A stretch of DNA of 61,927 bases, filler included. It is 8 parts of 8 records of this genome, joined end to end, with 100 filler letters (N's around TTAATTAATTAA, not from the genome) between each part and the next. Parts side by side here need not be neighbours in the genome. Positions count along the whole stretch, not along the records: positions 31,069 to 36,967 come from SRR31147125_1422; 7 more parts are not named here. The stretch is one strand, 5' to 3'. Shown piece by piece: positions 2,419 to 56,554 of this stretch. Within the stretch, counting starts at the first letter, position 1. Every line of letters begins with the position of its first letter. The notes under the pieces are model-generated. The model was not told the origin of the DNA. It saw nothing but the letters and a program-made list of their open reading frames with translations, and did not search any database. The translations under genes and the position numbers were made by a program.

Positions 2419-2489
2419 TGGTAAACAAATGCTCATTAGTAAAAAGACAATAATTTCACACCAAAAAGTGTTTTTTTAATTGCATTTAT

Positions 2490-2497
2490 TAAATTTG
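2490..2497 (+). promoter_or_regulatory. Bacteroidota housekeeping promoter -7 element upstream of mrp
   Basis: TAAATTTG matches TAnnTTTG, about 45 nt upstream of the ATG. Confidence 0.55.
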
Positions 2498-2541
2498 CAG
2501 TCTCAATTAGAAAGTAATCAATTGTATATAATAAATCTGAT

Positions 2542-3657
2542 ATGTCAGGAATACCAAAAAAAATGATAGTCCCAAAAGACGTTACCGATGCTTTACGCAC
2601 AGTAAACTTCCCGGGAAGCGAAGAAGATATTGTTACTCTTGAAATGCCGCAGGAAATTCGTATTGCCGGTAAGCGCGTTAGTTTTTCGTTGGTTTTTCAG
2701 AAAAGCGACGACCCAAATATTGAGTCGCTGATTTTAGAGTGCGAAAAAGCTATTAAAAAATACGTTGGCGAGGACGTTGAAATTGAGGATAATATTTCGG
2801 TGAAATTTATTCACGATATGGAACGCCCGGTACTTCCAAATGTAAAAAATATTATTGCTGTTGCATCGGGTAAAGGTGGTGTTGGTAAATCAACCGTCGC
2901 TGTAAACCTTGCTGTTGCATTGGCAAATTCAGGAGCAAAAGTTGGTTTATTAGATGCCGATATTTTTGGCCCCTCTATTCCAAAAATGTTTGGAGCCGAA
3001 GACCAGCGTCCTTCCGGTATTAAAATTGATGGTCGCGAAATGATTCAGCCTCTTGAAAAATACGGAGTTAAGTTTCTTTCGGTTGGCTTTTTTGTTGATA
3101 CCGACAGCGCAATTATCTGGCGCGGACCAATGGCGTCGAATGCACTGAAACAGTTAATAATGGAAGGCGATTGGGGCGAATTGGATTATTTGCTAATTGA
3201 TCTGCCTCCGGGCACAAGCGATATTCACCTTACTTTGGTGCAATCGGTTCCGGTAACTGGCGCTGTAATTGTAACCACTCCGCAAGATGTTGCTTTGGCC
3301 GATGTGGTACGCGGAACTAGCATGTTCCAAAGTAAATCAATCGATGTTCCTGTGTTAGGGTTGGTTGAAAATATGGCATGGTTTACACCTGAAGAATTAC
3401 CGGAAAATAAATATTACATTTTCGGAAAAGAAGGCGGTAAAAAGCTGGCCGACAAGCTTGGTTTACCATTGCTTGGGCAAATTCCAATTGTTCAAAGTAT
3501 TCGCGAAGGAGGCGATTCAGGAAATCCAATTGCCAACGAAAGCGAATCAATTACCGGTGTTTCGTTCTCCGAAGTTGCTGAAAGTATGAAGCAACGCGTT
3601 CATGTGCGTAACATTCAAAAAGCACCAACTAAAAAGGTGAAAGTAACACGGCAATAA
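2542..3657 (+). CDS. mrp: Mrp/NBP35 (ApbC) Fe-S cluster carrier ATPase
   Basis: ASGKGGVGKST, DADIFGPSIP, WRGPMA, DLPPGTSD, VENM. Confidence 0.95.
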   Translation: MSGIPKKMIVPKDVTDALRTVNFPGSEEDIVTLEMPQEIRIAGKRVSFSLVFQKSDDPNIESLILECEKAIKKYVGEDVEIEDNISVKFIHDMERPVLPNVKNIIAVASGKGGVGKSTVAVNLAVALANSGAKVGLLDADIFGPSIPKMFGAEDQRPSGIKIDGREMIQPLEKYGVKFLSVGFFVDTDSAIIWRGPMASNALKQLIMEGDWGELDYLLIDLPPGTSDIHLTLVQSVPVTGAVIVTTPQDVALADVVRGTSMFQSKSIDVPVLGLVENMAWFTPEELPENKYYIFGKEGGKKLADKLGLPLLGQIPIVQSIREGGDSGNPIANESESITGVSFSEVAESMKQRVHVRNIQKAPTKKVKVTRQ

Positions 3658-7833: not shown

Positions 7834-8691
7834 ATGAATAAGCCAAGAATTCTTTGGACCGACGACGAAATAGATCTTTTACGTGCACACATTATATTTT
7901 TAGAAGAAAAAGGATATGAAGTAGACACCGCAACCAACGGGCTTGATGCCATTGAAAAGGTTAGTGAGAGTTTCTATGATATAATTTTTCTTGATGAAAA
8001 TATGCCGGGATTAACGGGTCTCGAAACGCTTACAAAAATTAAGAATATTTCGCCTAATATTCCGGTAATAATGATTACCAAAAGCGAGGAAGAAAATATT
8101 ATGGATGAGGCAATTGGTGCTAAAATTGCCGACTACCTTATAAAGCCTGTTAATCCGAAACAAATTCTTCTTAGTATAAAAAAGAATATCGACCAAAAAC
8201 GCTTGGTAACCGAACAAACCACATCGAAATACCAGATGCAATTTGCACAAATAGGTATGCAAATTGGCGATCGTTTAACCTTCGAAGAGTGGAAAGAAAT
8301 CTACAAAAAATTGGTGTATTGGGAACTGGAGCTGAGCGGATCTGAAGATTCGGCGATGGACCAAATCCTGGCTATGCAAAAGGAAGAAGCCAATAAAGCA
8401 TTCTTCAAATATGTAAAGGAGAATTATGAAGGTTGGTTTTCGGGAGATTCAGAACGACCAATGATGTCGCCTGATATTTTTAAGAATCGCGTTTTTCCGC
8501 AGCTCGATAAGGGAAAGAAAACCTTTGTTTTGGTAATCGATAATCTTCGTTACGACCAGTGGCGTATTTTTAGCCCGGTTATTAACGAGTATTTTAATAC
8601 CGATGCTGAAGAGTTGTTCTGCAGCATTTTACCCACTGCAACAATGTATGCCCGAAACGCGATGTTTGCCGGTTTAATGCCTTCTGAAATA
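7834..8691 (+). CDS. porX: PorX response regulator (receiver + PglZ domain), 3'-partial
   Basis: ILWTDDEIDLL, FLDENMPG, ITKSEEE, VIDNLRYDQW, ILPTATMYARNA; runs into the spacer. Confidence 0.92.
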
Positions 8692-8791
8692 NNNNNNNNN
8701 NNNNNNNNNNNNNNNNNNNNNNNNNNNNNNNNNNNTTAATTAATTAANNNNNNNNNNNNNNNNNNNNNNNNNNNNNNNNNNNNNNNNNNNN
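8692..8791. other. Artificial contig spacer
   Basis: 44 N + TTAATTAATTAA (stop codons in all six frames) + 44 N. Confidence 0.99.
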
Positions 8792-8793
8792 TT

Positions 8794-9867
8794 TTTGAAA
8801 ATACTAATTTAAATATAATATACATATATTATAAAAACAATAGCCTGAAACCTAATAATTCAAAAACTTTAACAAACTTTATTGTAGATAGTAATAACAG
8901 ACTTGCTTTAGCTGGTGTTGATAGTATTTTTTCTAGTAAGAATAATTATAATCCTATATATTTACACGCAAAACCGGGTTATGGAAAATCACACCTTTTA
9001 AATGGGATTGCATTAAAATATAAAGAAGTATATCCTGATAAAAATATTTGTTATTTAGATAGTAATATATTTATAGATCAATATAAAAATTCTGCTTTAA
9101 CCAATAATATACCTCTATGGCATAATAACATTTTAAACTCGAATTTATTTATTCTTGATAATATTCATAAACTAAAAAACAACACTTCTGTCATTGATGA
9201 ATTTAATATACTTTTTGATGAGTTATATGATAGAAATATACCTATAATAATTAGCTCAGATACTATTGCTGAAAATCTTGATTCTTTTCCTGATTCTCTT
9301 ATAAGTAAATTACAATGGGATTTAAAACTTGAAATTTACTCTGACAATAAATATAAAAAAAATAACTATATACAATATTGTTTTAATAAAAATAATAAGA
9401 TCGTAAATGAAGAAATTATATCGTATATATCTGAAAATTTTAATAAAAACTATCGTGAATTAAATGGAATTATAAATACTATTATTTTTTATGCTGATAC
9501 TTCAAGCAAACCTATTACAATTGGTTTAGTAAATGAGATATTTAAAAAGAAACAGCATCTTAATAATATTTCATATACAATTAACAATACAGATATTATT
9601 GATATAGTTTGCAAGTATTTTAAAATTAATGTTGTTTCTATTAAATCTAAAAAAAGATCAAGAATAATTGCCTATCCTAGACAGATTGGAATGTATTTAA
9701 CCAAAAAACATACTAATTTATCACTTGAAGAAATAGGAAAGGCTTTTGGTGGAAGGGATCATAGTACTGTAAAACATGCTATTGAAAAAATTAAATCCTT
9801 GTTGAATAGTGATAATAAAACAAAACAGATAATTAATAATATAAATACTATAATAGAAGATAAATAA
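8794..9867 (+). CDS. dnaA: Divergent chromosomal replication initiator DnaA, 5'-partial (absent from the ORF track)
   Basis: My translation of frame 1, open from the contig edge: NFIVDSNNRLA, YNPIYLHAKPGYGKSHLL, FILDNIH, NYRELNG, and domain IV PRQIGMYL..SLEEIGKAFGGRDHSTVKHA. Lies upstream of dnaN. Confidence 0.9.
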   Translation, partial: FENTNLNIIYIYYKNNSLKPNNSKTLTNFIVDSNNRLALAGVDSIFSSKNNYNPIYLHAKPGYGKSHLLNGIALKYKEVYPDKNICYLDSNIFIDQYKNSALTNNIPLWHNNILNSNLFILDNIHKLKNNTSVIDEFNILFDELYDRNIPIIISSDTIAENLDSFPDSLISKLQWDLKLEIYSDNKYKKNNYIQYCFNKNNKIVNEEIISYISENFNKNYRELNGIINTIIFYADTSSKPITIGLVNEIFKKKQHLNNISYTINNTDIIDIVCKYFKINVVSIKSKKRSRIIAYPRQIGMYLTKKHTNLSLEEIGKAFGGRDHSTVKHAIEKIKSLLNSDNKTKQIINNINTIIEDK

Positions 9868-10130
9868 TAAATACTATAATTTATCTTCTGTTTATTATAA
9901 TTGATAATTAGCTGAGAATAGAACATGATCTGAACATAAATATTAAATACTGATCTCAACATTACATAAAGTTAGAGTATAAAAGTTAAGAACACTACAT
10001 TGAAATAAATCATATAACTTAAATAATAATAATATTATAGAAAAAAAATTTAATTAAACTCTACAATATATTATTACTTAATATATAATAATATTTTATT
10101 TAAAAGATAATATATTAAAGGAGATATAAG

Positions 10131-11226
10131 ATGAAATTTACCTGTTCAAGGTACCTTTTTAGCAGAAGCACTTAATTTGGTAAATAACGTTATTCCTAAT
10201 AAAGCAGTAAAACCAGTCTTACAAAATGTTCAAATTATTGGAAACGCTAATAATACTATTACACTTATAGGTACAGATTTAGAAATAGGTATTTCGTATA
10301 CTATAGAGGTAGATGAAATTATAGATCCTGATACTATTCTGGTATCTGCAAATAGATTATTAGGCATTGTATCAGAGGATAAATCAGAATCTATCTCATT
10401 TGAAATATATGAAGATTCTGCTAAAATGATAACCAGTAGAGGTGAATTCAGCTTTTCTGTAGCTATGGATGAAGAATATCCTAAAATATCTGAGTTGACA
10501 GAGAATAATATTTTTGAAATTCCTGGAGATGCATTAAATGATGCTATAAGTAAGACCGAGTTTGCAACAGCCAAAGGAGATACCAGATATGCTTTAAATG
10601 GTATTTGTGTTAATATTTTGGGTGACTCTATCGATTTTGTTGCAAGTGATACTCATAGATTATCAAAAGTTAATAAAAAGATAAATAATATTAATGCAGA
10701 AAATGGACAGTATATAATTATAACAAAAGGCATGAAAGAACTTGCAAAGTTAGCAGCAGGTGAAGAAGTTATAACTATACAGTTATCAAATAACGAAATG
10801 GTAGCTAAGTCATCAAAAGCATTGATTGTTACTAGACTTGTAGAAGGTCAATTTCCAAATTATAATAATGTTATTCCTGCTGAAGCAGTTGTGGATGTGA
10901 CTATGAAAAGAGATGAAATAATTCATGGGATGCGTTTAGTCGGTAAAATGAGCAATGAGGAATCTCATTCTATCAGATTTAATTCTGCAAATAATAAGTT
11001 GAACCTTTCTGCTATGACTGGAAATATTGGATCGGGAAAACAAGAATATGAAGTGGTTATTAATGGCGGAGAAATTAGTACTAATTTTAATTATAACTAT
11101 ATGATAGATGCTTTAAAATCATTCAATAGTTCTGAGCTGGTATTGTTATTTAAAAGTAATGATGCGCCTGTAAAAATTATTGAAGGTGATTATGTACATA
11201 TTGTGATGCCTATTACTACAAAATAA
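10131..11226 (+). CDS. dnaN: DNA polymerase III beta clamp, 1-nt frameshift near 10142
   Basis: RBS AAGGAG then ATG 10131 (MKFT..); GTDLEI, TRYALNG, ASDTHRL, LVEGQFPNYNNVIP, IVMPI. Confidence 0.95.
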
Positions 11227-11227
11227 A

Positions 11228-14069
<2,842 letters not shown>

Positions 14070-14118: not shown

Positions 14119-16679
14119 ATGAATGAAGAAAACAATCTCACCCTTGGTGCAGGTATTAAAGATTTATCAATAGAAAAAGAGATGAAGGACAGTTATCTGA
14201 CTTACTCGATGAGTGTTATTGTGTCTCGAGCTTTACCTGATGTAAGAGATGGACTTAAACCTGTACATCGTAGAATATTGACTGCAATGAATGATTTGCA
14301 TTTATCATTTAGACATAAACATGTAAAGTGTGCAAAAGTTGTTGGTCAGGTTTTAGGTAATTATCATCCACATGGTGATTCAGCTGTTTATGATGCTATG
14401 GTACGTGTTGCTCAAAGTTTCTCTGTTCGTTATCTTTTGATCGATGGACATGGAAATTTTGGTTCAATTGATGGTGACAGAGCAGCGGCATATCGTTATA
14501 CAGAATGTAGAATGCAGAAATTGTGTGATGATCTGCTTGCCGATTTAGATAAAGATACTGTTGATTTTGTAGATAATTTTGATGGTACAGCTACTGAACC
14601 GACAGTATTGCCTGGTAAATTACCATTGTTGCTATTGAATGGTGCAACAGGTATTGCTGTTGGTATGGCAACAAATATGGCACCACATAATCTGAGTGAG
14701 GTATGTGGTGGGGTTATGGAATTGATAGATAATCCTGATGCCGGTGTTAAAGAATTAATGCAGCACATCAAAGTACGGATTTTCCTACAGGTGGTCTGAT
14801 ATGTGGTAGAGAAGGAATTATAAAAGCATATGAGAGTGGTCGTGGTCGTGTGCAGATGCGTGCTAAATGCCATATTGAAACACAGAAAAATGGCAGACAG
14901 TCTATTGTTGTTACAGAAATTCCATATCAGGTTAATAAACTCAATATTATTGAAAAGATAGCAACAGTTGTAAAAGAAAGTAGAGTAAAAGGAATCTCAA
15001 CAATCGAGGATTATACTAATAAAGATGGTATAAGACTTGTAATTGATTTGAAAATGGGTGAAGATGCCAATGTTGTTTTAAATCAGTTATATAAAATGAC
15101 ACCTTTGGATTCAGGTTTCTCAATCAATAATATTGCTCTTGTTAATGGTCGTCCAGAAACATTGACTCTCAAACAGATGCTTCAATACTATATAGATCAT
15201 AGAGTAGATATTATTACCAGACGTACAAGATATTTACTTGATAAAGCAGAAGCAAGAGCGCACATTGTTTCAGGGTTATTAATAGCTCTTGATCATATTG
15301 ATAGAGTAATTGAAATAATTAGAGGATCTGAAACAGCAGATGAGGCAAAAGCAGGACTTATCAAAGAGTTTAAATTATCAGATATTCAGGCACATCATAT
15401 TCTTGAAATGCGTCTACGTAGACTTACTGGTCTACAGCGTCAGGAACTAGAAAATGAATATGCAGAATTGATGGAGAAAATAAAAGAGTATAAAGCAATT
15501 CTTGGAGATAAGCAGTTAGTATTGAATATAGTTAAAGAAGATTGCCAGGAAATGATAGATAAACATGGCGATGAAAGAAGAAGTGAGATTGTTGCAGCTA
15601 CAGAAGACATAAGTATTGAAGATATGATTGCAGATGAAGAGATGGTTGTAGTAATTTCTCATGATGGTTATATCAAGAGAATGCCAATAGATACTTATAG
15701 AAAACAAGGTCGTGGCGGTAAGGGAGTTACTGGAGCTGGTAATATGAAAGAAGGTGATTTTATCGAACACCTCTTTATTGGTTCTACTCATGACTATATA
15801 TTGTTCTTTACTTCAATTGGTAAGGTTTATTGGTTAAAGATTTATGATGTTCCACAGATGGGAAGAGCAGCAAAAGGACGAGCGATTGTAAATGTTTTAG
15901 AGCTAGAAAAGAATGAAACAATTCAGACCTGTATACCAGTACGAGAATTTGATGATGAGCATTATCTATTACTTGCAACTAAAAAAGGTATAGTTAAAAA
16001 GACAGTTCTTTCGGCTTATAAGCGACCAATGAAGACAGGCATTAAAGCAATTAATTTACGTGATGATGATGAGCTATTTGGAGCAGCAATAACAAATGGT
16101 GATAATAAATTAATGCTGGCAAGTAAGAATGGTATGGCTTGTCACTTCAGTGAAAAAGATGTTCGCCCAATGGGTAGAGTAGCTGGTGGTGTTACAGGAA
16201 TGAAACTTGGTGATGACGATGAATGTGTAGGTTTGATGCTGGTTAGTTCTGATTCAACCGTTATTACTATCGCAGAAAAAGGATTAGGTAAGCGCAGTTC
16301 ATTTGATGACTATAGACTTACAAAACGTGGGGCTAAAGGTGTTACTAATATGAAAATTACAGATAAGACAGGTAAAGTTGTTTCCTGTATGTCTGTATCT
16401 GAAGAAGATGAATTGATGTTGATTACTACTGGTGGAATGGTAGTAAGAACAGCGGTAAATGGCTGTAGAGTTATTGGTAGAGCGACACAGGGTGTAAAAG
16501 TTATCGGTCTTAATAATAAAGATAAAGTAGCAATGGTAGCAAAAGTAGCAGAAGAAGAGAAAGAAGAAAATATAGATAATGAACCTGAATTAGATCAGAC
16601 AGTTCCTGATGAAGCTTTGAAAGAAATGCTTGATAGAGCAGACGAACAGGCAGAAGAAGAGAATAACTCAGATAATTAA
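14119..16679 (+). CDS. gyrA: DNA gyrase subunit A, frameshift near 14773
   Basis: [33 protein letters not shown], GyrA-box QGRGGKG; the two ORFs join across the conserved (G)PDFPTGG motif. Confidence 0.97.
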
Positions 16680-18228: not shown

Positions 18229-18328
18229 NNNNNNNNNNNNNNNNNNNNNNNNNNNNNNNNNNNNNNNNNNNNTTAATTAATTAANNNNNNNNNNNNNNNN
18301 NNNNNNNNNNNNNNNNNNNNNNNNNNNN
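18229..18328. other. Artificial contig spacer
   Basis: N44-TTAATTAATTAA-N44. Confidence 0.99.
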
Positions 18329-29318: not shown

Positions 29319-29806
29319 TGCGTATGTATCAAATTGGAAAAATCGTTAATACTCATGGTATTAAAGGTGAGGTACATATTTATAATTTAAGTGACTTCAA
29401 TCGTTTTCGTGCTAATGAAACAATTTATGTAGAATTAAATGATCGATCATACAAACCTTTTTTGATCACACAGGTAAGGCCACATAAGAAAGTACTTATC
29501 GTCAAGTTTGATGGGTTTGATAACATCAATGATGTCTTACCATACAAAGGTTTATTTGTGTATGCAAATGAAAAAAGTAGTGATATGGAAGATGATGAAT
29601 TTTATTATGATGAATTAATTAAAAAAGATGTTTTTTTAGAAAATGGTGAAAAAGTTGGTTTTGTGATTAGTGTTGTTGAGGTTCCTCAAGGACATTTATT
29701 AGAAATTAAAACACCAGAGAAAAAAACATTAATTCCTTTTCGTAAGGAGTTTATCATTTCAGTCAATGATGTCATCGTCATTAAAGATATTGAGGGATTA
29801 TTATGA
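29318..29806 (+). CDS. rimM: Ribosome maturation factor RimM
   Basis: IGKIVNTHGIKGEV, EFYYDELI, LIPF, IEGLL. Confidence 0.95.
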   Translation: MRMYQIGKIVNTHGIKGEVHIYNLSDFNRFRANETIYVELNDRSYKPFLITQVRPHKKVLIVKFDGFDNINDVLPYKGLFVYANEKSSDMEDDEFYYDELIKKDVFLENGEKVGFVISVVEVPQGHLLEIKTPEKKTLIPFRKEFIISVNDVIVIKDIEGLL

Positions 29807-30588
29807 TTATAGATATAGTCACGATATTTCCTGAGTTTTTCGATGCGTTTATACATACATCAATTATGAAACGAGCACAAGCATCAGGGTTGGTTACCAT
29901 TAGATGTCATCAACTCAGAGATTATAGTGGACGTAAGCATCACTATATTGATGACACACCATATGGTGGTGGTGCAGGTATGTTAATGCAATTTCCACCA
30001 TTTTACAAAGTGATTCAAAAATTAAAGACAAAAGATTCTAAAGTGATATTATTATCACCACAAGGACAAGTCTTTAATCAGAAAAAAGCCATTGAACTTT
30101 CAAGTGAAGCAAAACATTTAATTTTGTTATGTGGACATTATGAAGGTATTGATGCAAGAGTATTATCATTTGTTGATGAAGAAATATCAATAGGCAATTA
30201 TGTTTTAACAGGTGGAGAGATACCAGCCATGATCATTAGTGATGCTGTGGTGCGTTTAATTCCTGGAGTTATTGATGAATTGTCTAGAGATACAGATAGC
30301 TTACAACAAGGATGGTTGAAATATCCTCAATATACGAAACCTGATACGTATGAAGGATATAAAGTACCTGATATTTTAAAGTCTGGTCATCATAAAAATA
30401 TTGAAGATTGGCGTTTAGAACAAAGTATAAAAACAACATATGAAAAACGTCCGGATTTAATTAAACATATGAATTTAACTGAACAAGAGATTAAAATATT
30501 AGATAAAATTAAAAAAGTAACAACAAATAGTTATCATAATACGTATAAACATGATGTAAGTTGCATCTTATGCATAACTTTGTTATAA
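29803..30588 (+). CDS. trmD: tRNA (guanine-N1)-methyltransferase; C-terminal tail may be extended by a homopolymer error near 30515
   Basis: [42 protein letters not shown]. Confidence 0.97.
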
Positions 30589-30589
30589 T
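30561..30589 (+). promoter_or_regulatory. Promoter of rplS
   Basis: TTGCAT-17 nt-TATAAT with extended TG. Confidence 0.7.
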
Positions 30590-30609
30590 AAAAAAGCCGA
30601 ATTTAAACA

Positions 30610-30640
30610 CAATGGTCCGCTGTATAAACAAGAACATTGG
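30610..30640 (+). ncRNA. Ribosomal protein L19 leader
   Basis: CAATGGTCCGCT-GTATAAAC-AAGAACATTG hairpin with the CCGCT/AAGA internal loop, immediately 5' of rplS. Confidence 0.8.
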
Positions 30641-30662
30641 AAGGAAAGAAAGTGAGTCTATT

Positions 30663-30968
30663 ATGTCAAAACTAAAAGGGCAAGCGTTAATCGCAGAGAT
30701 AACAAAAGGTTATCTAAAAGAAGTTCCTTCATTCAATGCAGGAGACACAGTTAAAGTCTACGTTAAAATCGTTGAAGGTAACCGTGAACGTCTTCAGTTA
30801 TTTGAAGGTCTTGTTATTAAAAAACAAGGTGGCGGAGTTTCTGAAACATTTACAGTACGTAAAGTTTCTTATGGTATTGGAGTAGAGCGTACTTTCCCAC
30901 TACATTCACCAGCAATCGATCATATCGATGTTGCACGTAGAGGTAAAGTAAGAAGAGCTAAATTACAT
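30663..30968 (+). CDS. rplS: 50S ribosomal protein L19, 3'-partial
   Basis: [51 protein letters not shown]. Confidence 0.97.
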
Positions 30969-31068
30969 NNNNNNNNNNNNNNNNNNNNNNNNNNNNNNNN
31001 NNNNNNNNNNNNTTAATTAATTAANNNNNNNNNNNNNNNNNNNNNNNNNNNNNNNNNNNNNNNNNNNN
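30969..31068. other. Artificial contig spacer
   Basis: N44-TTAATTAATTAA-N44. Confidence 0.99.
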
Positions 31069-31335
31069 GAAATGTGCGAAAGATACTGTACGTTATCTCG
31101 CTGCAAATCAACGATGCTGAAGCACAAAAAGCCCCACTGGGTGTGGAATGTGGAATAGGATGTGACAATGATCCGAAGAGATTCAGGAAGAATAATCGTG
31201 TTTTTCTTGTGAAATGAAGCAATGGCCTTTTGTTTTCACCATAAACTCCAGTCAGATATCGCTAATTTTATTCTTATTAATCTTTTAAAAAAGAAGCATC
31301 TCCGACCTTTCTGCTGCATAGGACGCCTGGTGGAT

Positions 31336-32195
31336 CTAGATGGTAGGGCCGTCTTCAATGAAAGCTTCAAATCGCCGTTCCAAATTGAACAGAGGTAAGA
31401 CATCAAAGAATCTGTTTTGGTACTTTAGTTTCCCTTTTGGACTAATTGCGATTGTGATATCCGCAACGGGAGGGCCATACTTGTACGTGGCCACAAGTGC
31501 CTCATCGTCTCCCATGTATCCTATGTGCCAAGGCTTCGAGTATTCCCTGATCACCGGGCGTATTCTTTCCCAAATACTAGAAAGCTCTTCTTTCGAGTAT
31601 AGTTTTCTTTCAAACCATATCGGCAACCTGTAAATATAGTCAAAAGACTGCATGTAGTTTCGTGACTTCGGCAGGCCTATTGTTTTCAAGAATTCCTTTT
31701 TGTTTTGAGCGTATTCTTGCATTTCAAGACCGGGGAAAGCTAAAGAAACTCTAACTCCTAGAGATTTTACTTTTTGGACCAAGGGAGCATAGTCAGCATC
31801 CATAGCTACTAACAGTATCTCTGCGACCTTTCCAGAAAAAGCAAGGGACAGCATATCTACTGTCAGTTTTATGTCCACGCCTTTCGAATTCTGCCTTTGT
31901 TTTCTTTTTTAATAAGAAAGGTTTCTCCAATGCCCCACGATTGTAGCTGCTCTCGTATTCTTTCACCTTTTTCTATATCGCCAACATAGCTGCCATAGTA
32001 GTACTTGCGAAGCAGCTTAGAAGTGTTCATGAAGAATCTGAAATCATATTTAGAAGACCAAAAATTATCCTCAGAAACAGCCTCCTTTACGCCAGGTCTT
32101 AGAAAGGCTCCATTGAGAAGCAATTCAATAGATTTCATTCTGGCAGAAAGGTTTTCTCCATCAATGAATATTGCGAAAGGACGATCATGATACAT
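31336..32195 (-). CDS. NYN (LabA/DUF88, PIN-fold) domain protein, frameshift near 31890 joining two ORFs
   Basis: AIFIDGENL, KYYYGS, (S)KGVDIKLTVDML, LLVAMDADYAPLVQKVKSLGVRV: the full NYN acidic active-site set. Confidence 0.85.
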
Positions 32196-32227
32196 TTTTA
32201 TGCCCTTTGATTGAAATTTACAATTTT

Positions 32228-33504
32228 TTACGTGGCTGATTCTTTACTAGGGCCTTTAGACTGGCTCTCGCCTTTGTGAACAATATCCTTCACATATTCT
32301 CCATTTGGAAGTCTGGTACCTTTGCAATCCTTCGTTGTTTCTATGAAATTATCCACTGATAAGCCGATCGCTGCGCTCAGATCAGCGCTGCGAATAACTG
32401 TTCCTTGAAAAATGGTGCCTTCTACGTGTGCACCGTGCAAATATGCACTATCCATGTAGGAGTTTGTGAAATTGCACCCGGACAAGATGTTCTTTCGCAT
32501 AATGGCAGATATTAGGACCGATTTAGAAAAGTCGATTCCTGAATAGTCGCCAGAAAAATTTGTGTGTGCCAATACTTTCCCAACAAAGCTAACCACCGTA
32601 TCCTTTCGAGCGGTCCAGAAACTCTGACCTATCGAACGAATGATCGCTTTACAAGAGTCGAATGTGAATGGAAGCGCTTTTCCTCGTGGCGGTGGAAAAT
32701 CTAAGGTGAATTTTTCGTCGAGGGGGTGTTTGACAACCATCGAAACACCGCCGTGCGAAGACTCCTTTAAGGTTCTGTGTCCAGTTGCGTCTCTTGATAC
32801 TTCCTCGAAGTGGAGAACATCAGAAAGAAAATAGAGTCTTCTTTCAAGGTGGTCAGAAAAAGAGAAAGAATATGCTCCTGTAGAGTTGGAAATCTACGGG
32901 CAATTCGCTCCAACCCTGATACCGACTTGGTTGCTACCTTGTCATCATCGGAGAATAGGCCATTCTCATAACTATCTAATTTGCCAAAAGCATCCAATAG
33001 GACCGTTTCATTTGAGGTTTTAAGGTCAAGGTCCTTTGACGTCTTTCTCCAATACCAAGTAACTAATACAGATGGTAGAGCAACTAGTGCCGATAAGAGG
33101 TACCATGGTGGGTTCTTTTCAAATATTGCTTTCCAATTTGGATCTTTTGCAATCTTATAATTGAAGAATGCAATTGCTAAAGCAAGTAAAAGAATCCCGA
33201 CCAATACAGAAAAGATAATGGTTGCGCCGGGATGGTTGAGGAGCATGTCATGAAGAAAATTCTTAGAATAATCGTAACCATTCTTTTCACTTTTCTTTTT
33301 TGCTATGTGCTGAAAAAGGAAAAGCAGTGGGAGGAAAGTGAAACCAGCGACACAAAGGCCTGCCTGCCAGGGTGGATACGAGACCAATGATGAAACTCCT
33401 AAGAAAACGGAGCAGAACGTACCTGCGCAAGACGAAATGCAGAACGCCTTCAAGCCCTGAAAAGACGAGCTTTTCCAGCTGTCTTCTGAAAACCATTGTT
33501 TCAT
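32228..33504 (-). CDS. Membrane protein with C-terminal pentapeptide repeats; probable frameshift near 32825 joining ORFs 32767..33531 and 32228..32740
   Basis: About four TM helices, WYWR..SGLERIARRFP, then repeats (TNFSG, IDFSK, CNFTN, AYLHG, ADLSA). The downstream frame is open back to about 32825. Confidence 0.65.
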
Positions 33505-33627
33505 AGATAAACAAAATAGGCCAAAAAACAAGGCTAGTAAAGCACAAACTACGCTGCCCGAACCAGTGTCGGTACTAATCTAAAATGTCTTCTGAGAGCA
33601 GCAAAAATGCTGCCGAAGGAGGCGAAC

Positions 33628-33753
33628 ATGAAGTGGTACTGGATAGCCTTGCTCATCTTTGCCGCCGTTTTTGGCGGGATTCCCGGCTCTGTAGCGCTGG
33701 CAAGGAAGATCAAGGACAAGGCCGCGGCCAGCAAAGCCGCTGCGGGGGCTTAG
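33628..33753 (+). CDS. 41-aa single-TM protein with basic/Ala-rich tail (putative virion membrane protein; not in the ORF track)
   Basis: AAGGAGG RBS, then MKWYWIALLIFAAVFGGIPGSVALARKIKDKAAASKAAAGA*; stops 3 nt before the next ATG. Confidence 0.8.
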   Translation: MKWYWIALLIFAAVFGGIPGSVALARKIKDKAAASKAAAGA

Positions 33754-33756
33754 ACT

Positions 33757-34884
33757 ATGTTTTTGAACAGAGACCAAGTCAACGTTCTCAACGAAACAGG
33801 AATTTCTGTAACTGACCCCTTCGAGGCAAAGTTTGGAACCATCCCTGAGCGCCCGAGCAGCCTTTACGCCTACGCGTACGCGATTCTCTTCACCGTGAGC
33901 TTCACGGTCACGGAGACCGGAACCTTCGCCTTGCTCGCGAAGTACGCGTGGCAAGTGCTTCAGAGCGTGTATCTGAAGTACAATAGGCACACCCGCTGCA
34001 ACAACCTCTCGGGGCTGAACATCTTGCAGTTTGCTGTTCAGGGGGACGAGATATGGTCTCCCAACATCATCTCCAAGTACATTCAGACCTCCACCATTAC
34101 CACCGGCTCGGGAGACACAGAGGTCACCATGAAGATCCTCTACCCGCTCGCTCCGGGAATGGTGAAGGAGAGCCATGATCCGTTCAGCGGCCTGATCCCG
34201 TTGACCGAGTTCAAGACCTCCGGAGAGCTGAAGACATCGGTGAAGCCGGCGAACGCGATCATCGGAGGTGACGCAACCAACGGTTGGGGGATCACGGCCG
34301 CCGGTACGAACCTGCGAATCGATCTCCTCACGGTCAACCTTCCCTACGCGGTGGAGCACGTGTACTTCACGGAGACGATCCGCAAGTCCGGGGAAGGCGA
34401 GCTTGCCCTCGCCGGCAACGGTGAACGGCTCGTGAGCTGTCTGCTTCTGACCGACGACGGAGACGCCGACGTTTCCATGCCGGACGCCTTGAGCCTCTGG
34501 TTGAAGGACGACTGCCGGATCGCAGGGAGAAGCGGAGCCCAGCTCGAGACGCAAGCCAACATTCGGCGCATGGACGGGATCAACGATCTTCTGCCGAAGG
34601 TGGTTCCTCTTGTGACCCTCGCAGACAGGGAGTTAAACGAGTGCCTCGCGGTCTACGAGGACGGCAAGATCGTCGACCCCGTGGGTAACGATCAAGGGCA
34701 GTACAAGCAACTGATCCGGTACTCCCAGCGAATCAGCCGCAACGCTCAGAAGGCAATCCTCCAGCGCCAGAAGGTGGACCCCAAGGTGATCGATGCATAC
34801 CTCGACGCCATGGACACCACCCTGAGGACGGACGCGGCGGAGATCGTCGGACAGTCCACGGTTGCACTGAAACCGGCGGTGTGA
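33757..34884 (+). CDS. Candidate double-jelly-roll major capsid protein (STIV/PM2/PRD1-lineage-like)
   Basis: 375 aa, no TM or signal peptide, beta-rich. Two related segments: VLQSVYLKYNRHTRCNNLSGLNI (about aa 67-89) and DALSLWLKDDCRIAGRSGAQLE (about aa 243-264). Basic C-terminal helix. Resembles the STIV capsid sequence as recalled from memory. Confidence 0.6.
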   Translation: MFLNRDQVNVLNETGISVTDPFEAKFGTIPERPSSLYAYAYAILFTVSFTVTETGTFALLAKYAWQVLQSVYLKYNRHTRCNNLSGLNILQFAVQGDEIWSPNIISKYIQTSTITTGSGDTEVTMKILYPLAPGMVKESHDPFSGLIPLTEFKTSGELKTSVKPANAIIGGDATNGWGITAAGTNLRIDLLTVNLPYAVEHVYFTETIRKSGEGELALAGNGERLVSCLLLTDDGDADVSMPDALSLWLKDDCRIAGRSGAQLETQANIRRMDGINDLLPKVVPLVTLADRELNECLAVYEDGKIVDPVGNDQGQYKQLIRYSQRISRNAQKAILQRQKVDPKVIDAYLDAMDTTLRTDAAEIVGQSTVALKPAV

Positions 34885-34888
34885 AGCC

Positions 34889-35302
34889 ATGAGCCGTTCT
34901 GACAAAGTCGGACTCGTCACTGTGATCGCCCTGGCGGCGATCATGGTGATCGTGCTCCTGTGGCCGTCCAAGCGCTACAAGCTCTTGCCAGGGGATCTGG
35001 CGGAGGATGACGGGCTTCCCGACGGTGTAGTACCCGAGCCCGGGGGCGGAGTAGACGACGTTCAAGCGCCTGTCCGCAACCGTCCGGAGGTCGAACCGGA
35101 CGGAAGCCTTGAGCCTGGATACGAGTATGACGAGAACGGCGTCTACCAGGTTCCCGCCGGCATCGGTCCCGAACCTGAGGAAGCCAAGAAAAGCGCCGTG
35201 GTTGTCATCCAGCGAATAGGGCAGCCCAAAGGGCTCAACGGCGAGTCTCTGGTTCGAGGAGAAACCAACTCCAGCGACCAAACCACCGTCGAAATCGAGT
35301 AG
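34889..35302 (+). CDS. N-terminally anchored acidic Pro/Gly-rich protein (putative virion membrane protein)
   Basis: TM VGLVTVIALAAIMVIVLLW followed by a D/E/P/G-rich region. Confidence 0.7.
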   Translation: MSRSDKVGLVTVIALAAIMVIVLLWPSKRYKLLPGDLAEDDGLPDGVVPEPGGGVDDVQAPVRNRPEVEPDGSLEPGYEYDENGVYQVPAGIGPEPEEAKKSAVVVIQRIGQPKGLNGESLVRGETNSSDQTTVEIE

Positions 35303-35311
35303 GGGGCTATC

Positions 35312-35848
35312 GTGGCCTCTCTACCTCCGGAAACGACCGAGAAACTCTCGAAGACCCTCTACAACTATGGACTTCGAACGCTCATCCCGCGCGGCTCCAT
35401 CCTTGGAGCTGAAGAGCGTTACTCCCTCGTGCTGATCTGGCCGGCGACTCAACAGGGTTTCTTGAAGCCCGGGGAGTCCCACATCATCAAGAGGCTTCAA
35501 GCGGTGGGCCTTGACGTCTGCATGGCTCTTGATGGCGACATCTGGGCGATCACGGAGATCGAGCCACAGCGAGCGGGCATTACATCTGACAGCGTGTACA
35601 CAGCCGTTTCAGAGATGATCGCTATCGGCCTCATATTCGAGGAGGAGTTCATACCAGCTCCCGAGATCCTCAAGGACATCGCCGAAAGCGCTCAATCGAT
35701 AGTCGCAAACACTGACCTCGAAGAAACCGGGAAGGAGGCCCTCAAGACGGCAAAGACGATCCTCGCGGTGGTTATCTGCCTGGGGATTCTAGCTCTCATC
35801 TGGGCCTTAGTTTCCAGGGTTCCCAAGAAGAAGGAGGTCTCCCAATGA
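35312..35848 (+). CDS. C-terminally anchored membrane protein (putative virion protein)
   Basis: GTG start after GGGGG; C-terminal TM ILAVVICLGILALIWALV followed by a basic tail. Confidence 0.7.
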   Translation: MASLPPETTEKLSKTLYNYGLRTLIPRGSILGAEERYSLVLIWPATQQGFLKPGESHIIKRLQAVGLDVCMALDGDIWAITEIEPQRAGITSDSVYTAVSEMIAIGLIFEEEFIPAPEILKDIAESAQSIVANTDLEETGKEALKTAKTILAVVICLGILALIWALVSRVPKKKEVSQ

Positions 35849-36015
35849 AGAAGAACGGAGTCGTGATCGTGCTCCTCCTGGTGGTCATCACGCTTCAGAT
35901 CTCCTGGATCGTATACGTGCAGGTCCAGAAGGCGAAAGCGAAGGCTCTTCTCAAAGAACAAGGCGTAGGCAACCTGGCCTCGGTGCTTGCGACCTTGCCG
36001 GGAGGGTCGCTTTGA
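35845..36015 (+). CDS. 56-aa single-TM protein (putative virion membrane protein; not in the ORF track)
   Basis: AAGGAGG RBS; ATGA overlap with the previous stop and TTGA overlap with the next start; MKKNGVVIVLLLVVITLQISWIVYVQVQKAKAKALLKEQGVGNLASVLATLPGGSL*. Confidence 0.8.
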   Translation: MKKNGVVIVLLLVVITLQISWIVYVQVQKAKAKALLKEQGVGNLASVLATLPGGSL

Positions 36016-36626
36016 AAAAGGACACAAAAAAACGAAACATCATCATCGGGGCAACTGTTGCCGGGGTGATTCTGACCATTCTCGTATTGGTCTTCATCGT
36101 GAAGCGCAAATGGACTGTCACAGATTCCAGGGAGCCCAAGGGAGGCGGGCGATCTTCGGGTGGCTCAAAAGGGGGTGAAGACGCAAAGCTGAAGGTTCCC
36201 CTGGACAAAGGGAAGCTGAAGGAAGTCGCCGGGGAGCTGAAGGACATCGCCATAGGCAAGTTGCCCGTGGTGAACGTAAACCCGGAGCCTCAAGAAGGAT
36301 TCAATCCGCTTTCACCAACTACCGTGCCGGTTCCCGGTAAAGCGTACGCTGTGAAATCAGGTGACTCGGATTCCCTCATCTGCGCGAAGGCCGGGTTCTC
36401 AAACGTTCACGCGGCTCGAATGAAGTTTCGAGATCACGCGCTGAATGCGTGGATACCCAAAACCACCTTGTACGGTCCGGAACAGCTCAACCTTCGCAGG
36501 GAATGGGCTCCCATGGCCGGCTACGAGGATCGCTCATACGCCTACAAGACCGCGCAGAAGGTGCCGAGCAAGAAATACAAGTGGCCTGTGGTGTATGTCC
36601 CCCGCATCGATGAGGTCCCCGCATGA
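36012..36626 (+). CDS. Membrane-anchored LysM-like domain protein
   Basis: N-terminal TM, Gly/Ser/Lys linker, then GKAYAVKSGDSDSLICAKAG..LN (LysM YxVxxGDxxxxIA pattern); GGAGG RBS. Confidence 0.65.
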   Translation: MKKDTKKRNIIIGATVAGVILTILVLVFIVKRKWTVTDSREPKGGGRSSGGSKGGEDAKLKVPLDKGKLKEVAGELKDIAIGKLPVVNVNPEPQEGFNPLSPTTVPVPGKAYAVKSGDSDSLICAKAGFSNVHAARMKFRDHALNAWIPKTTLYGPEQLNLRREWAPMAGYEDRSYAYKTAQKVPSKKYKWPVVYVPRIDEVPA

Positions 36627-36922
36627 GCGAGGTAAAAGGAATCCTCGAGTGGTCCACCATTTGGGACACCACGAACCAGTTCACCACCGTGAAACTTCCT
36701 GCGGGGCACTACAACCTCACAGCCATGTTCGCCGCTGCGAGCTACCTTCCTTTGGAAGACAATGCGGGGGAGTACGATCGCACCTCTCAAGGCCGGCTTC
36801 TCCCCAGGGACAAGACAAGGCCGCTCTACCTGAAAGAGGAAACCCCCATCACCTACTTCATCCCGGTTGGGGCAATAGTCGGGGTTGAACGAATCAGACC
36901 CGTTAACCCTTACGAGGTCTGA
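36623..36922 (+). CDS. 99-aa soluble beta-rich ORFan (possible minor capsid/vertex protein)
   Basis: GAGG RBS; ATGA overlap with the previous gene; alternating hydrophobic strands, no TM. Confidence 0.6.
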   Translation: MSEVKGILEWSTIWDTTNQFTTVKLPAGHYNLTAMFAAASYLPLEDNAGEYDRTSQGRLLPRDKTRPLYLKEETPITYFIPVGAIVGVERIRPVNPYEV

Positions 36923-36924
36923 AG

Positions 36925-36967
36925 GTGGGGTTCCGTCTTCACATACCCTCCGGGGTTCTCAACTCGG
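36925..36967 (+). CDS. Start of the next ORF of the operon, truncated by the contig end
   Basis: GAGGT RBS; GTG 2 nt after the previous stop; MGFRLHIPSGVLNS.. open to the edge. Confidence 0.4.
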
Positions 36968-37067
36968 NNNNNNNNNNNNNNNNNNNNNNNNNNNNNNNNN
37001 NNNNNNNNNNNTTAATTAATTAANNNNNNNNNNNNNNNNNNNNNNNNNNNNNNNNNNNNNNNNNNNN
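36968..37067. other. Artificial contig spacer
   Basis: N44-TTAATTAATTAA-N44. Confidence 0.99.
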
Positions 37068-37201: not shown

Positions 37202-38833
37202 ATGAAAAGTGTTAAATACTATATCATATTTATTTTACTTGGGGTAATTACTTCATGCGACGATTATCTGGAAACTACTCCTTATTCATTTACGTCACCC
37301 GAAAACTTTTATACAACGGCCAGTGAGGCAGAAATTGCACTTACAGGAGTATATGCTGTTTTAACTGAAACAACTGTTCAGGATTACGGTAACCAGTCGA
37401 CTTATAGTCGCCAACTGATGTTTATGCTTAATGGTGGTGTGGATGAATGCCTAACCAATCACAACTTCAATAATATTAATATTTCGCCCTGGGGAGTGGC
37501 GGGCTTTACTGCCGAAAGCAGCTATACTGAAGAAAACTGGTTTTTCTTATATGCCGGTATTAACAGGGCAAGCTACCTGATAGAAAAACTGGACCAAATT
37601 GATGATTTTGATAATAACAGGAAAGTAGAAATAGAAGGCGAAGCCAGGTTGCTTAGGGGCTTTTATCATATGATGCTTTCAATGATTCATGGAGCCATTC
37701 CGGTTTATACAACATCAGAGCAAGATCCTTCTGCATCTCGGGAATCATTGGATAATGTTTACGCCCAGATTATTGAGGACTACGAATTTGCCTATCAGAA
37801 TTTACCAGATCGTGCAACAGTTGATAGTCATGTAAATAAATGGACCGCAGCTTCGTTATTAGCCAAAGTATATACCTATTTGGGGAGTGCTAAAAAAACC
37901 GGTGTCCCTGATTTTGGTTTTACATTAAATAGTTTCGACTGGGTGGACGCCGATGATTGCTATGCAAAGGCATTGACCTATACAACGGATGTGATAAATA
38001 ATAGTGGTTATATTTTAATTTCAAATTACGACCGTTTGTTTCGCGAAACTACAAAACAAGATCAATATAAGGAATGTATGCTTACAGGTGAAGCTTCAAG
38101 TGATGCAAGTATTGAGTCAGTAAATGTAATATTGAATGCTTTTGTACCCCAGGGTAACAGAAATACTGTTGGTGGCGGCTATGGAAATTTTAGGCCTTTG
38201 GGTGAGCTATACAACAGATATGCAGCCCAGGATATTCGCAGAGACCATAATTTAACCGGGAATATTTTAAATACTGCAGACGTTGAAACTGTGGATGGTG
38301 TAAGGTATTATATTCCACGTGCTTTGCCCAGAACTACAGTTGGATATTATTGTATAGGAAAATACAGGATGGCTGATCCTGCAACCAAGTCGATCCCAAC
38401 CTGGGCATCAAACATTAGTTTACCTTTGCTGAGGTATGGCGATGTGGTTTTATTACATGCCGAAGCACAGTATTTTACTGGCGATGAGGATGGTGCGCGG
38501 AATACACTAACGATGTTGCGTGAAAGAGCAGTTGGAGAGTCAACTACAGTGGAAACGTTAAATGAGGCATATTATAACAGCGATTTTATACAGGAACTTC
38601 TTGATGAAAGATCAAGGGAATTGTGCTTTGAAAACTGGAGGCGTATCGATTTGGCACGTTTTAACGCATTTGATGATGCTGTTGAGTTTTTATCAGCAGA
38701 AACTACCATCGGTTTTTATAATGTTTCTGTTACAACATTGAAGCAAAACTGGAAGTCTGAAAAGATATGGATTCCAATCCCATTGACACAAATAGATTTA
38801 AATCCAAATCTGATACAAAACTCAGGATATTAA
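37202..38833 (+). CDS. susD: SusD/RagB-family glycan-binding lipoprotein
   Basis: Lipobox ITSC; GEARLLRG; LLRYGDVVLLHAEA; ERSRELCFENWRRIDL; NPNLIQNSGY. Confidence 0.95.
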   Translation: MKSVKYYIIFILLGVITSCDDYLETTPYSFTSPENFYTTASEAEIALTGVYAVLTETTVQDYGNQSTYSRQLMFMLNGGVDECLTNHNFNNINISPWGVAGFTAESSYTEENWFFLYAGINRASYLIEKLDQIDDFDNNRKVEIEGEARLLRGFYHMMLSMIHGAIPVYTTSEQDPSASRESLDNVYAQIIEDYEFAYQNLPDRATVDSHVNKWTAASLLAKVYTYLGSAKKTGVPDFGFTLNSFDWVDADDCYAKALTYTTDVINNSGYILISNYDRLFRETTKQDQYKECMLTGEASSDASIESVNVILNAFVPQGNRNTVGGGYGNFRPLGELYNRYAAQDIRRDHNLTGNILNTADVETVDGVRYYIPRALPRTTVGYYCIGKYRMADPATKSIPTWASNISLPLLRYGDVVLLHAEAQYFTGDEDGARNTLTMLRERAVGESTTVETLNEAYYNSDFIQELLDERSRELCFENWRRIDLARFNAFDDAVEFLSAETTIGFYNVSVTTLKQNWKSEKIWIPIPLTQIDLNPNLIQNSGY

Positions 38834-43615: not shown

Positions 43616-43715
43616 NNNNNNNNNNNNNNNNNNNNNNNNNNNNNNNNNNNNNNNNNNNNTTAATTAATTAANNNNNNNNNNNNNNNNNNNNNNNNNNNNN
43701 NNNNNNNNNNNNNNN
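43616..43715. other. Artificial contig spacer
   Basis: N44-TTAATTAATTAA-N44. Confidence 0.99.
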
Positions 43716-49491: not shown

Positions 49492-49591
49492 NNNNNNNNN
49501 NNNNNNNNNNNNNNNNNNNNNNNNNNNNNNNNNNNTTAATTAATTAANNNNNNNNNNNNNNNNNNNNNNNNNNNNNNNNNNNNNNNNNNNN
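49492..49591. other. Artificial contig spacer
   Basis: N44-TTAATTAATTAA-N44. Confidence 0.99.
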
Positions 49592-56454: not shown

Positions 56455-56554
56455 NNNNNNNNNNNNNNNNNNNNNNNNNNNNNNNNNNNNNNNNNNNNTT
56501 AATTAATTAANNNNNNNNNNNNNNNNNNNNNNNNNNNNNNNNNNNNNNNNNNNN
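56455..56554. other. Artificial contig spacer
   Basis: N44-TTAATTAATTAA-N44. Confidence 0.99.

Follow-up and report, generated by a model that had tools for sequence, protein, structure and literature searches.

A capsid and membrane protein gene block

The window, a stretch of 61,927 nt, consisted of eight contigs of 5.4 to 12.6 kb each, strung together by spacers of 44 N, 12 nt and 44 N, and the region studied here, nt 33628–36967, was carried by one contig of 5,899 bp (nt 31069–36967, SRR31147125_1422). Its eight orfs, designated g1 to g8 (Table 1), very probably constitute the capsid-and-membrane (morphogenesis) block of a tailless icosahedral double-stranded DNA (dsDNA) virus belonging to the PRD1/PM2/STIV lineage. 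As judged from its structural model, the protein predicted for g2 is a double jelly-roll (DJR) capsid protein nearest in fold to P3 of phage PRD1, and the predicted fold places the lineage within the Bamfordvirae, with the class Tectiliviricetes as the nearest. Since the window was made of joined contigs, gene adjacency across the spacers is meaningless and nt 36967 is a contig end rather than a biological boundary; about 3.4 kb of the viral element was present on the 5,899-bp contig, the rest of the element being elsewhere.

An earlier note on this DNA, made by inspection of the sequence, had taken the 375-aa product of g2 for a capsid protein, and modelling bore this out. In word-indexed homologue searches, g2 retrieved one relative (33% identity) and the full capsid profile also retrieved one only; an exhaustive HMMER search of 1.84 billion proteins yielded 34 representatives at E ≤ 1e-3, nearly all of 374 to 428 aa and spanning 34 clusters at 50% identity. 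One protein, P0015 (3,157 aa), aligned to the capsid profile piecemeal, in 16 short segments that all fell around profile positions 215–272. These segments are probably copies of a repeat motif similar to the capsid protein's Gly/Asp-rich loop, and P0015 was excluded from the alignment, leaving 33 rows. The AlphaFold2 model of g2 built from this 33-row alignment had a predicted local distance difference test (pLDDT) score of 91.1 and a predicted template modelling score of 0.91; a model built from 2 sequences reached a pLDDT of 38 and was useless. In a Foldseek search against PDB with the former model, PRD1 P3 ranked first (E = 1.8e-13), followed by the capsid proteins of STIV, PBCV-1, an iridovirus and PM2, and against BFVD the top matches were tectivirus capsid proteins from Bacillus phage Wip1 (E = 2.3e-15) and Gluconobacter phage GC1. 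The leading matches were viral DJR capsid proteins throughout, and the two vertical jelly-roll barrels that characterize the capsid proteins of Bamfordvirae and Tectiliviricetes were present in the predicted structure of g2.

At the sequence level, g2 had no tblastn match at E ≤ 1 in a collection of 50,697 phage records, and PDB sequence searches with the capsid profiles returned nothing meaningful. The sole named NCBI member of the family encountered was annotated as a hypothetical protein of a metagenome-assembled genome (MAG), and a literature search on that accession and its record found nothing. A cellular identity of the DUF2961/GH172 type was also considered for g2 and rejected; neither cellular enzymes as the closest structural neighbours nor a cellular operon context was found.

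The compact layout described for the block was reproduced. The eight orfs, all on the plus strand, were separated by gaps of 3, 4, 9 and 2 nt and joined by three 4-nt overlaps (ATGA, TTGA and ATGA), and the 41-aa and 56-aa orfs that the earlier note had added to the gene track were both present on that strand. The strong Shine-Dalgarno (SD) sequences reported corresponded to GGAGG-type sites before g1 and g5. A Kyte-Doolittle scan (19-residue window, threshold 1.6) agreed with the assignment of a single transmembrane (TM) helix to five products (41, 137, 178, 56 and 204 aa), detecting exactly one hydrophobic helix each in g1, g3, g4 (C-terminal), g5 and g6, and none in g2 and g7. The basic patches mentioned for these proteins were seen in the translations as Lys/Arg clusters beside the helices. 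In searches against Pfam, PHROGs and NCBIfam, g1 to g7 had no matches beyond noise.

Conservation of the block in two related contigs

The longest contigs of the family clusters were mostly genome-sized, ten of them falling between 15.6 and 18.0 kb (15,661, 16,203, 16,254, 16,369, 16,999, 17,234, 17,354, 17,760, 17,932 and 17,953 bases), and two members (P0021 and P0024), candidates for proviruses, were on contigs of 173,534 and 292,362 bases. Two contigs were compared with the window, namely L001/L004 (G001:C111, 15,661 bases) and L002 (13,867 of 17,923 bases). Both had a GC content of 68%, and the former was filed in a Bacteroidales MAG (G001). At the ends of L004 was a 213-nt direct repeat (nt 1–213 and 15449–15661) with a single C/T mismatch at position 86, consistent with a unit of 15,448 bp that is either circular or terminally redundant; the mismatch makes an overlap created purely by the assembler less likely than strain variation in a circle or genuine terminal redundancy. 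No terminal inverted repeat was among the repeat pairs reported for L004. The convincing orfs of L001/L004 were all on one strand.

Genes in the same order were found in the window and L001, with g1, g2, g3, g4 and g6 giving tblastn E values of 0.013, 4e-52, 4e-4, 2e-8 and 5e-23 (4.6e-23 before rounding), respectively. L002 showed the order Walker-A ATPase, 42-aa TM orf beginning with MKWY as in g1, capsid gene, and g3-, g4- and g6-like orfs, thus possessing counterparts of g1, g2, g3 and g6 together with a g4-like architecture. The capsid proteins of the window, L001 and L002 were only 24–32% identical. The presence of homologues of g1, g3, g4 and g6 beside the capsid gene in both contigs, despite this low identity, is beyond chance. 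Downstream of the g6-like gene, the 240-aa orf of L004 matched SLT in Pfam with E = 0.0019, below the cut-off, and the endolysin family PHROG 669 with E = 1.2e-5; with the exception of this lysis-type orf, no orf of L001/L004 exceeded the threshold in Pfam, PHROG or NCBIfam.

No portal, terminase or tail motifs had been noticed in the block at first inspection, and no such family matched its orfs or those of the two related contigs. Tailed-phage, pilus or secretion genes, or homologues lying in a conserved cellular operon, had been named as observations that would speak for another origin. HK97, terminase, portal, tail, pilus and secretion families matched no orf of the window block, L001 or L002, and the homologues were instead on contigs of about 16–18 kb.

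A packaging ATPase had been predicted to lie to the right of the block. A candidate was indeed found in the relatives, on the other side, upstream of the capsid gene: a Walker A motif was present at the N-terminus of a 280-aa orf in L001 and a 279-aa orf in L002, which shared 46% identity and were situated about 650 nt upstream of the capsid genes. In the space of ESM features, this orf was placed beside viral AAA clusters of about 205–222 aa, of which a few carry DUF87; the score of 0.96 counts as no more than a lead. Alignment with PRD1 P9 by hhalign covered only the P-loop, at the same N-terminal position, with a probability of 61%, and a PDB sequence search with the ATPase pair gave nothing meaningful.

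Accessory proteins

The protein predicted for g1 had counterparts at the same place in L002 (42 aa) and L001. The N-terminus of g3 (DK[VI]G ... LLWP) was kept in the corresponding orfs of both contigs, and g4, which matched L001 in the tblastn search (nt 11549–12001), shared its architecture with an orf of L002. For g5, the positional counterpart in L001 was a 52-aa TM orf, and none was seen in L002. The best conserved of the accessory proteins was g6, through its C-terminal domain, in which the motifs RDH..N.W.P and VVY.P...EV were invariant in a three-way alignment of the window, L001 and L002; the alignment gave nothing meaningful in a PDB sequence search. A LysM assignment for g6 was tried and rejected, its ESM score of 0.80 being a weak lead that shuffled sequences reach a third of the time. 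Four of the single-pass membrane proteins around g2 (g1, g3, g4 and g6) are conserved and syntenic, and g5 is conserved in part. The 99-aa product of g7 is a candidate minor capsid or vertex protein; along with downstream orfs of L001 and L002, it could be the single jelly-roll penton.

The proposal that the region is the structural block of a lipid-containing type of tailless virus is supported by the predicted DJR fold and by the syntenic TM proteins, the membrane role being drawn by analogy. Five single-pass TM orfs flank the capsid gene, most of them in conserved synteny, and a virion-membrane location for their products, again argued from analogous viruses, is fairly probable; the virus itself probably contains lipid.

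Several observations weigh against this interpretation. The capsid profile and PRD1 P3 gave an hhalign probability of only 0.3%, so that there is no sequence-level link and the kinship depends on the predicted fold. No relative of the family was found by any query in the IMG/VR viral contig collection, and consequently no curated virus set vouches for it. The Walker-A orf had no Pfam match above the cut-off, and the L002 copy had none whatever, the ATPase being assigned via the P-loop alone. On the window contig itself there was no ATPase, the DNA upstream of g1 being unrelated, of 41% GC and coded on the other strand, and g7 had no homologue in L001 or L002. Finally, the membrane-containing virion is predicted here from gene content and by analogy. 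The missing ATPase would also suit a cellular operon built on a DJR protein of the DUF2961/GH172 type with membrane proteins, or a domesticated capsid module. Given that the relatives are on units of 15.6–18 kb in which an ATPase, a gene of lysis type and a terminal repeat occur, and that the gene order mirrors that of PRD1, the chance of such an origin is next to negligible.

By analogy with PRD1, PM2 and Jorvik, g1 to g8 may form one translationally coupled late operon, in which the small products would insert into the host membrane and trimers of g2 would enclose patches of it, thereby producing an internal virion membrane. The products of g1 and g3, at the positions of P20 and P22 of PRD1, may anchor an ATPase portal at the packaging vertex, and g6, with a membrane anchor and a conserved domain predicted to face outward, may have a role at the cell wall, in delivering the DNA at entry or in exit.

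Table 1. Features of the window and of the related contigs L001/L004 and L002
Feature	Position (nt)	Strand	Description
Window
g1	33628–33753	+	41 aa, ATG start, GAAGGAGG SD ahead; TM helix at residues 6–24
g2	33757–34884	+	375 aa, predicted capsid gene; no TM helix
g3	34889–35302	+	137 aa; N-terminal TM helix at residues 7–25; acidic, Pro-rich tail
g4	35312–35848	+	178 aa, GTG start; soluble N-terminal domain, C-terminal TM anchor at residues 149–167
g5	35845–36015	+	56 aa, ATGA overlap, AAGGAGG SD ahead; single-pass, TM helix at residues 5–23
g6	36012–36626	+	204 aa, TTGA overlap; N-terminal TM anchor at residues 10–28, linker, conserved C-terminal domain of about 100 aa
g7	36623–36922	+	99 aa, ATGA overlap; soluble, no TM helix; GC at third codon positions 0.70
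g8	36925–36967	+	GTG start; 14 codons, then contig end
NYN orf, two-base correction	31336–32195	-	286 aa
Membrane and pentapeptide orf, two-base correction	32228–33531	-	434 aa
Junction zone	33379–33627		GC from about 41% to about 58%; break of second assembly at 33379–33397
Spacers	8692–8791, 18229–18328, 30969–31068, 36968–37067, 43616–43715, 49492–49591, 56455–56554		Nearby features are contig ends
L001/L004
ATPase candidate	8506–9348		280-aa orf, N-terminal Walker A; followed by 132-aa orf
g1 position	9803–9976		57-aa TM orf
Capsid gene	10001–11125		
g3 position	11138–11464		108-aa orf, N-terminal TM helix
g4 position	11549–12001		176-aa orf, C-terminal TM helix
g5 position	12001–12159		52-aa TM orf
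g6-like	Downstream of g5 position		180-aa orf, N-terminal TM helix and conserved C-terminal domain
Distal orfs	After 180-aa orf		About 130-aa orf, 472-aa orf, 240-aa SLT-like orf, then two small TM orfs
L002
g3 counterpart	11153–11410		N-terminus of g3 kept
g4-like	11413–11898		Same architecture as g4

Comparison with known tailless viruses

In the PRD1 record, the genes are ordered as P9 ATPase, ORFi (42 aa), P20 (42 aa, "DNA packaging"), P3, P22 (47 aa, "DNA packaging"), small DNA-delivery proteins, P7 transglycosylase and P35 holin. The order in the relatives, namely ATPase, tiny membrane protein, capsid gene, small membrane proteins, transglycosylase and small hydrophobic orfs, is almost gene for gene alike, with g1 in the position of P20 and g3 in that of P22. 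P20 and P22 are integral membrane proteins of the unique packaging vertex of PRD1. Among the Tectiviridae (PRD1 and PR772; Bam35 and Wip1; GC1; order Kalamavirales), the capsid protein is also of similar length, 395 aa versus 375 aa for g2. However, the capsid family showed no detectable similarity to P3 either in the hhalign comparison or through PHROG or tblastn against phages, and instead of a linear genome with inverted terminal repeats, the relative L004 has a direct repeat. Among the L001/L004 orfs, Pfam, PHROG and NCBIfam revealed neither a protein-primed family B polymerase nor a terminal protein, in searches that a very divergent enzyme could escape. By the tests run, which concerned capsid sequence, repeat type and polymerase, the capsid family is outside the Tectiviridae.

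Similarity to the Corticoviridae and the order Vinavirales (PM2, Jorvik) was seen in other respects. L004 is likewise a small dsDNA unit, circular or terminally redundant, its direct terminal repeat being compatible with a circle and equally with a terminally redundant linear genome. The genome of PM2 is about 10 kb, and its type of capsid protein is about 270 aa long as compared with the 375 aa of g2; moreover, PM2 P2 ranked below the PRD1 and STIV proteins in the fold match. No Rep family of the rolling-circle type matched the orfs of the relatives. With a longer capsid protein predicted to be nearer to that of PRD1, a genome of about 15–18 kb and no Rep found, the capsid family is not PM2-like. 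According to a report on Jorvik, whose genome is 8.8 kb, both Jorvik and PM2 have a structural operon in which the capsid gene is followed by genes for small inner-membrane proteins and a gene of the Slt type, an arrangement resembling the present one, and virion preparations of the two phages contained small hydrophobic proteins whose genes follow the capsid gene (PMC10589892). The same report describes temperate Vinavirales, with which the occurrence of some family members on long contigs would agree (PMC10589892). The family genomes of about 15–18 kb are nevertheless larger than those of Jorvik and PM2.

Yutin et al. (2018) distinguished six metagenomic DJR groups (Odin, STIV, PM2, Bam35-Toil, PRD1 and FLiP) on 524 contigs (PMC5894146). 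Like the present family, the Turriviridae (STIV) and these groups have small genomes known mostly from contigs; the Odin group has a small conserved gene ahead of the capsid gene, and the maps of the Bam35-Toil group show LysM and transglycosylase genes (PMC5894146). The Odin group is there described as lacking an ATPase, whereas the family of L001 and L002 has a candidate one (PMC5894146). The lineage could not be placed in any described family and would be new at the family level within a known kind of virus, with morphogenesis genes of PRD1 type on another type of genome, the comparison with the DJR groups being one with their published descriptions.

Left neighbours and the junction

To the left of g1, on the minus strand at nt 31336–33531, were an NYN gene (Pfam E = 7.7e-10), a membrane orf and a pentapeptide-repeat orf (Pfam E = 3.2e-8). 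A second, independent assembly of run X1, probably the source run, was compared with the window. One of its contigs covered nt 31431–33397 and differed by two inserted bases, behind nt 31895 and behind nt 32856, which indicates that the window contig has two single-base errors or variants; with the two bases added, the NYN orf was intact and the membrane and pentapeptide orfs formed a single intact frame (Table 1). Another of its contigs (8,230 nt) covered nt 33379–36967 and extended 4,641 nt past nt 36967. No contig of the second assembly bridged nt 33379–33397, where the overlap was 19 nt and the depth was 8.3 on the left versus 10.1 on the viral side, and a mis-join is therefore possible. 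Run X2 had no contig on the stretch, a result without weight as proof of absence.

The two parts of the 5,899-bp contig differed in composition. The left part (nt 31069 to about 33550) had about 41% GC, minus-strand genes and a GC content at third codon positions (GC3) of 0.36–0.45, and the right block (about nt 33600 to 36967) had about 58% GC, plus-strand genes and a GC3 of 0.66–0.79 in the called frames. The other seven contigs of the window had 31–39% GC, and tetranucleotide use compared with them gave r = 0.62 to 0.72 for the left part and r = -0.27 to -0.52 for the right block. The junction contained no tRNA gene, Rfam match or repeat, and a scan for promoters and terminators stayed at chance level. 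The NYN piece had no relative in a word-indexed search, and the membrane piece had only 3 weak matches among 401 genomes of the phylum. The NYN piece also matched a PADLOC defence model weakly (E = 0.0013) and PHROG 5783 (E = 1.4e-5), and the pentapeptide orf matched PHROG 12514 (E = 3.2e-6).

It is quite conceivable, if short of an even chance, that a provirus begins here, with the block at its left end, in a chromosome of lower GC content, and that the 41% GC genes are host DNA. A circular genome would then have been opened just upstream of g1 by integration, leaving the ATPase at the far right end of the provirus. Such a state would agree with the two family members on contigs of 173 kb and 292 kb, with the resemblance of the left part, unlike the right block, to the bin in tetranucleotide use, and with three features of the second assembly: the corrected 434-aa orf crosses the break and reaches nt 33531, the GC switch occurs inside the contig bearing the viral genes, and this contig continues for 4.6 kb. 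The depth is also slightly higher on the viral side. On the other hand, the junction has no tRNA gene, Rfam match or repeat, no integrase was seen in the relatives, a gap of 17 points between virus and host GC would be unusual, and the left-hand genes themselves have no close relatives. In addition, when 400 other genomes from the order of the Bacteroidales bin containing L001, and 400 others from its phylum, were searched with the capsid profile, none gave a match. A mis-join of two unrelated molecules near nt 33379–33397, by which the viral block would be real and its neighbours and bin placement meaningless, is only slightly less probable. It draws on the absence of a second-assembly contig across a 19-nt overlap, the unequal depths, the abrupt change in GC3 and tetranucleotide use, the ending of synteny with L001 and L002 exactly upstream of g1, and the example of L001, which at 68% GC in a bin of 37–41% GC shows that such contigs get binned with unrelated genomes. 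Yet a similar break with an 11-nt overlap occurs at nt 31431–31441, inside the uncontroversial left part, so that breaks with short overlaps arise in these data without a mis-join; in addition, the 434-aa orf stays in frame for about 45 codons beyond the break, and the GC content changes about 200 nt further to the right, within one contig of the second assembly.

Alternatively, the viral element might have gained the left part recently as an accessory cassette, comprising an NYN nuclease and a membrane pentapeptide-repeat protein and transcribed divergently from the structural genes. The orphan status of its genes, the weak defence match of the NYN piece and the PHROG matches of both orfs would suit this, but L001 and L002 have no such genes, the genes of L001/L004 are all on one strand, and the GC3 contrast would be extreme for a single small genome, making the cassette improbable.

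Host and significance

Given the SLT-type gene, the host would be a bacterium with peptidoglycan. GARP/FYMINK amino-acid ratios in the family's capsid proteins were 0.94–1.65; ratios of this size point to genomes of mid to high GC content. The same small family was met twice in low-GC bins, once as L001 in a Bacteroidales MAG and once as the 58% GC block in a bin of 31–39% GC. The two other sampled contigs (L005 and L006) of the G001 bin had 37–41% GC, versus 68% for L001, and of the 401 genomes of its order and the 401 of its phylum, none but G001 itself matched the capsid profile. From this GC contrast and the absence of the profile from the other genomes, both bin placements look like binning accidents. 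That the viruses instead live in, and integrate into, low-GC Bacteroidota-like hosts while being 17–30 points higher in GC, with the window holding a true provirus-host junction, appears very improbable; if it were true, the two placements of the family in low-GC bins would be no accident. Counts of SD-like cores ahead of long orfs were mixed from contig to contig of the window, and the argument on the host drawn from them was dropped.

Judging from the modelled capsid protein, the lineage is one missed by Pfam, PHROGs and NCBIfam, and by IMG/VR as far as this was tested, and recognizable only via its predicted fold. Tailless phages with a membrane are poorly sampled, since their genes diverge past sequence recognition, and the capsid profile could flag such contigs, which at present end up in the MAGs of unrelated bacteria. 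New DJR phage groups have ceased to be surprising, and the window holds a fragment only. A PRD1-like predicted capsid and gene order, combined with a direct terminal repeat and no recognizable protein-primed polymerase, would put the lineage between the tectivirus and corticovirus genome types, which bears on the shuffling of morphogenesis and replication modules in Varidnaviria. Studies of how packaging vertices and the internal membranes of virions are assembled could use the conserved proteins of g1, g3, g4 and g6 as a compact test set.

Additional observations

Two weak PHROG matches were recorded in L002: nt 2461–3126 to a "major head protein" family (phrog_777, E = 0.0052), which is odd for a tailless virus, and nt 3165–3527 to a sigma factor (phrog_351, E = 7.2e-5). 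Both are too weak to interpret. On the contigs adjoining the 5,899-bp contig in the window, a TrmD-like methyltransferase (nt 29803–30588), ribosomal protein L19 (nt 30561–30968) and a SusD-like protein (nt 37202–38833) were named by eye from the translations, with no family search behind the names; these fit ordinary cellular genes and a bin of Bacteroidota type. At nt 31069–31098, five or six contigs of the second assembly agreed over the first 30 bases only and then diverged, indicating that the 5,899-bp contig begins at a branch point of the assembly graph, that is, a repeat.

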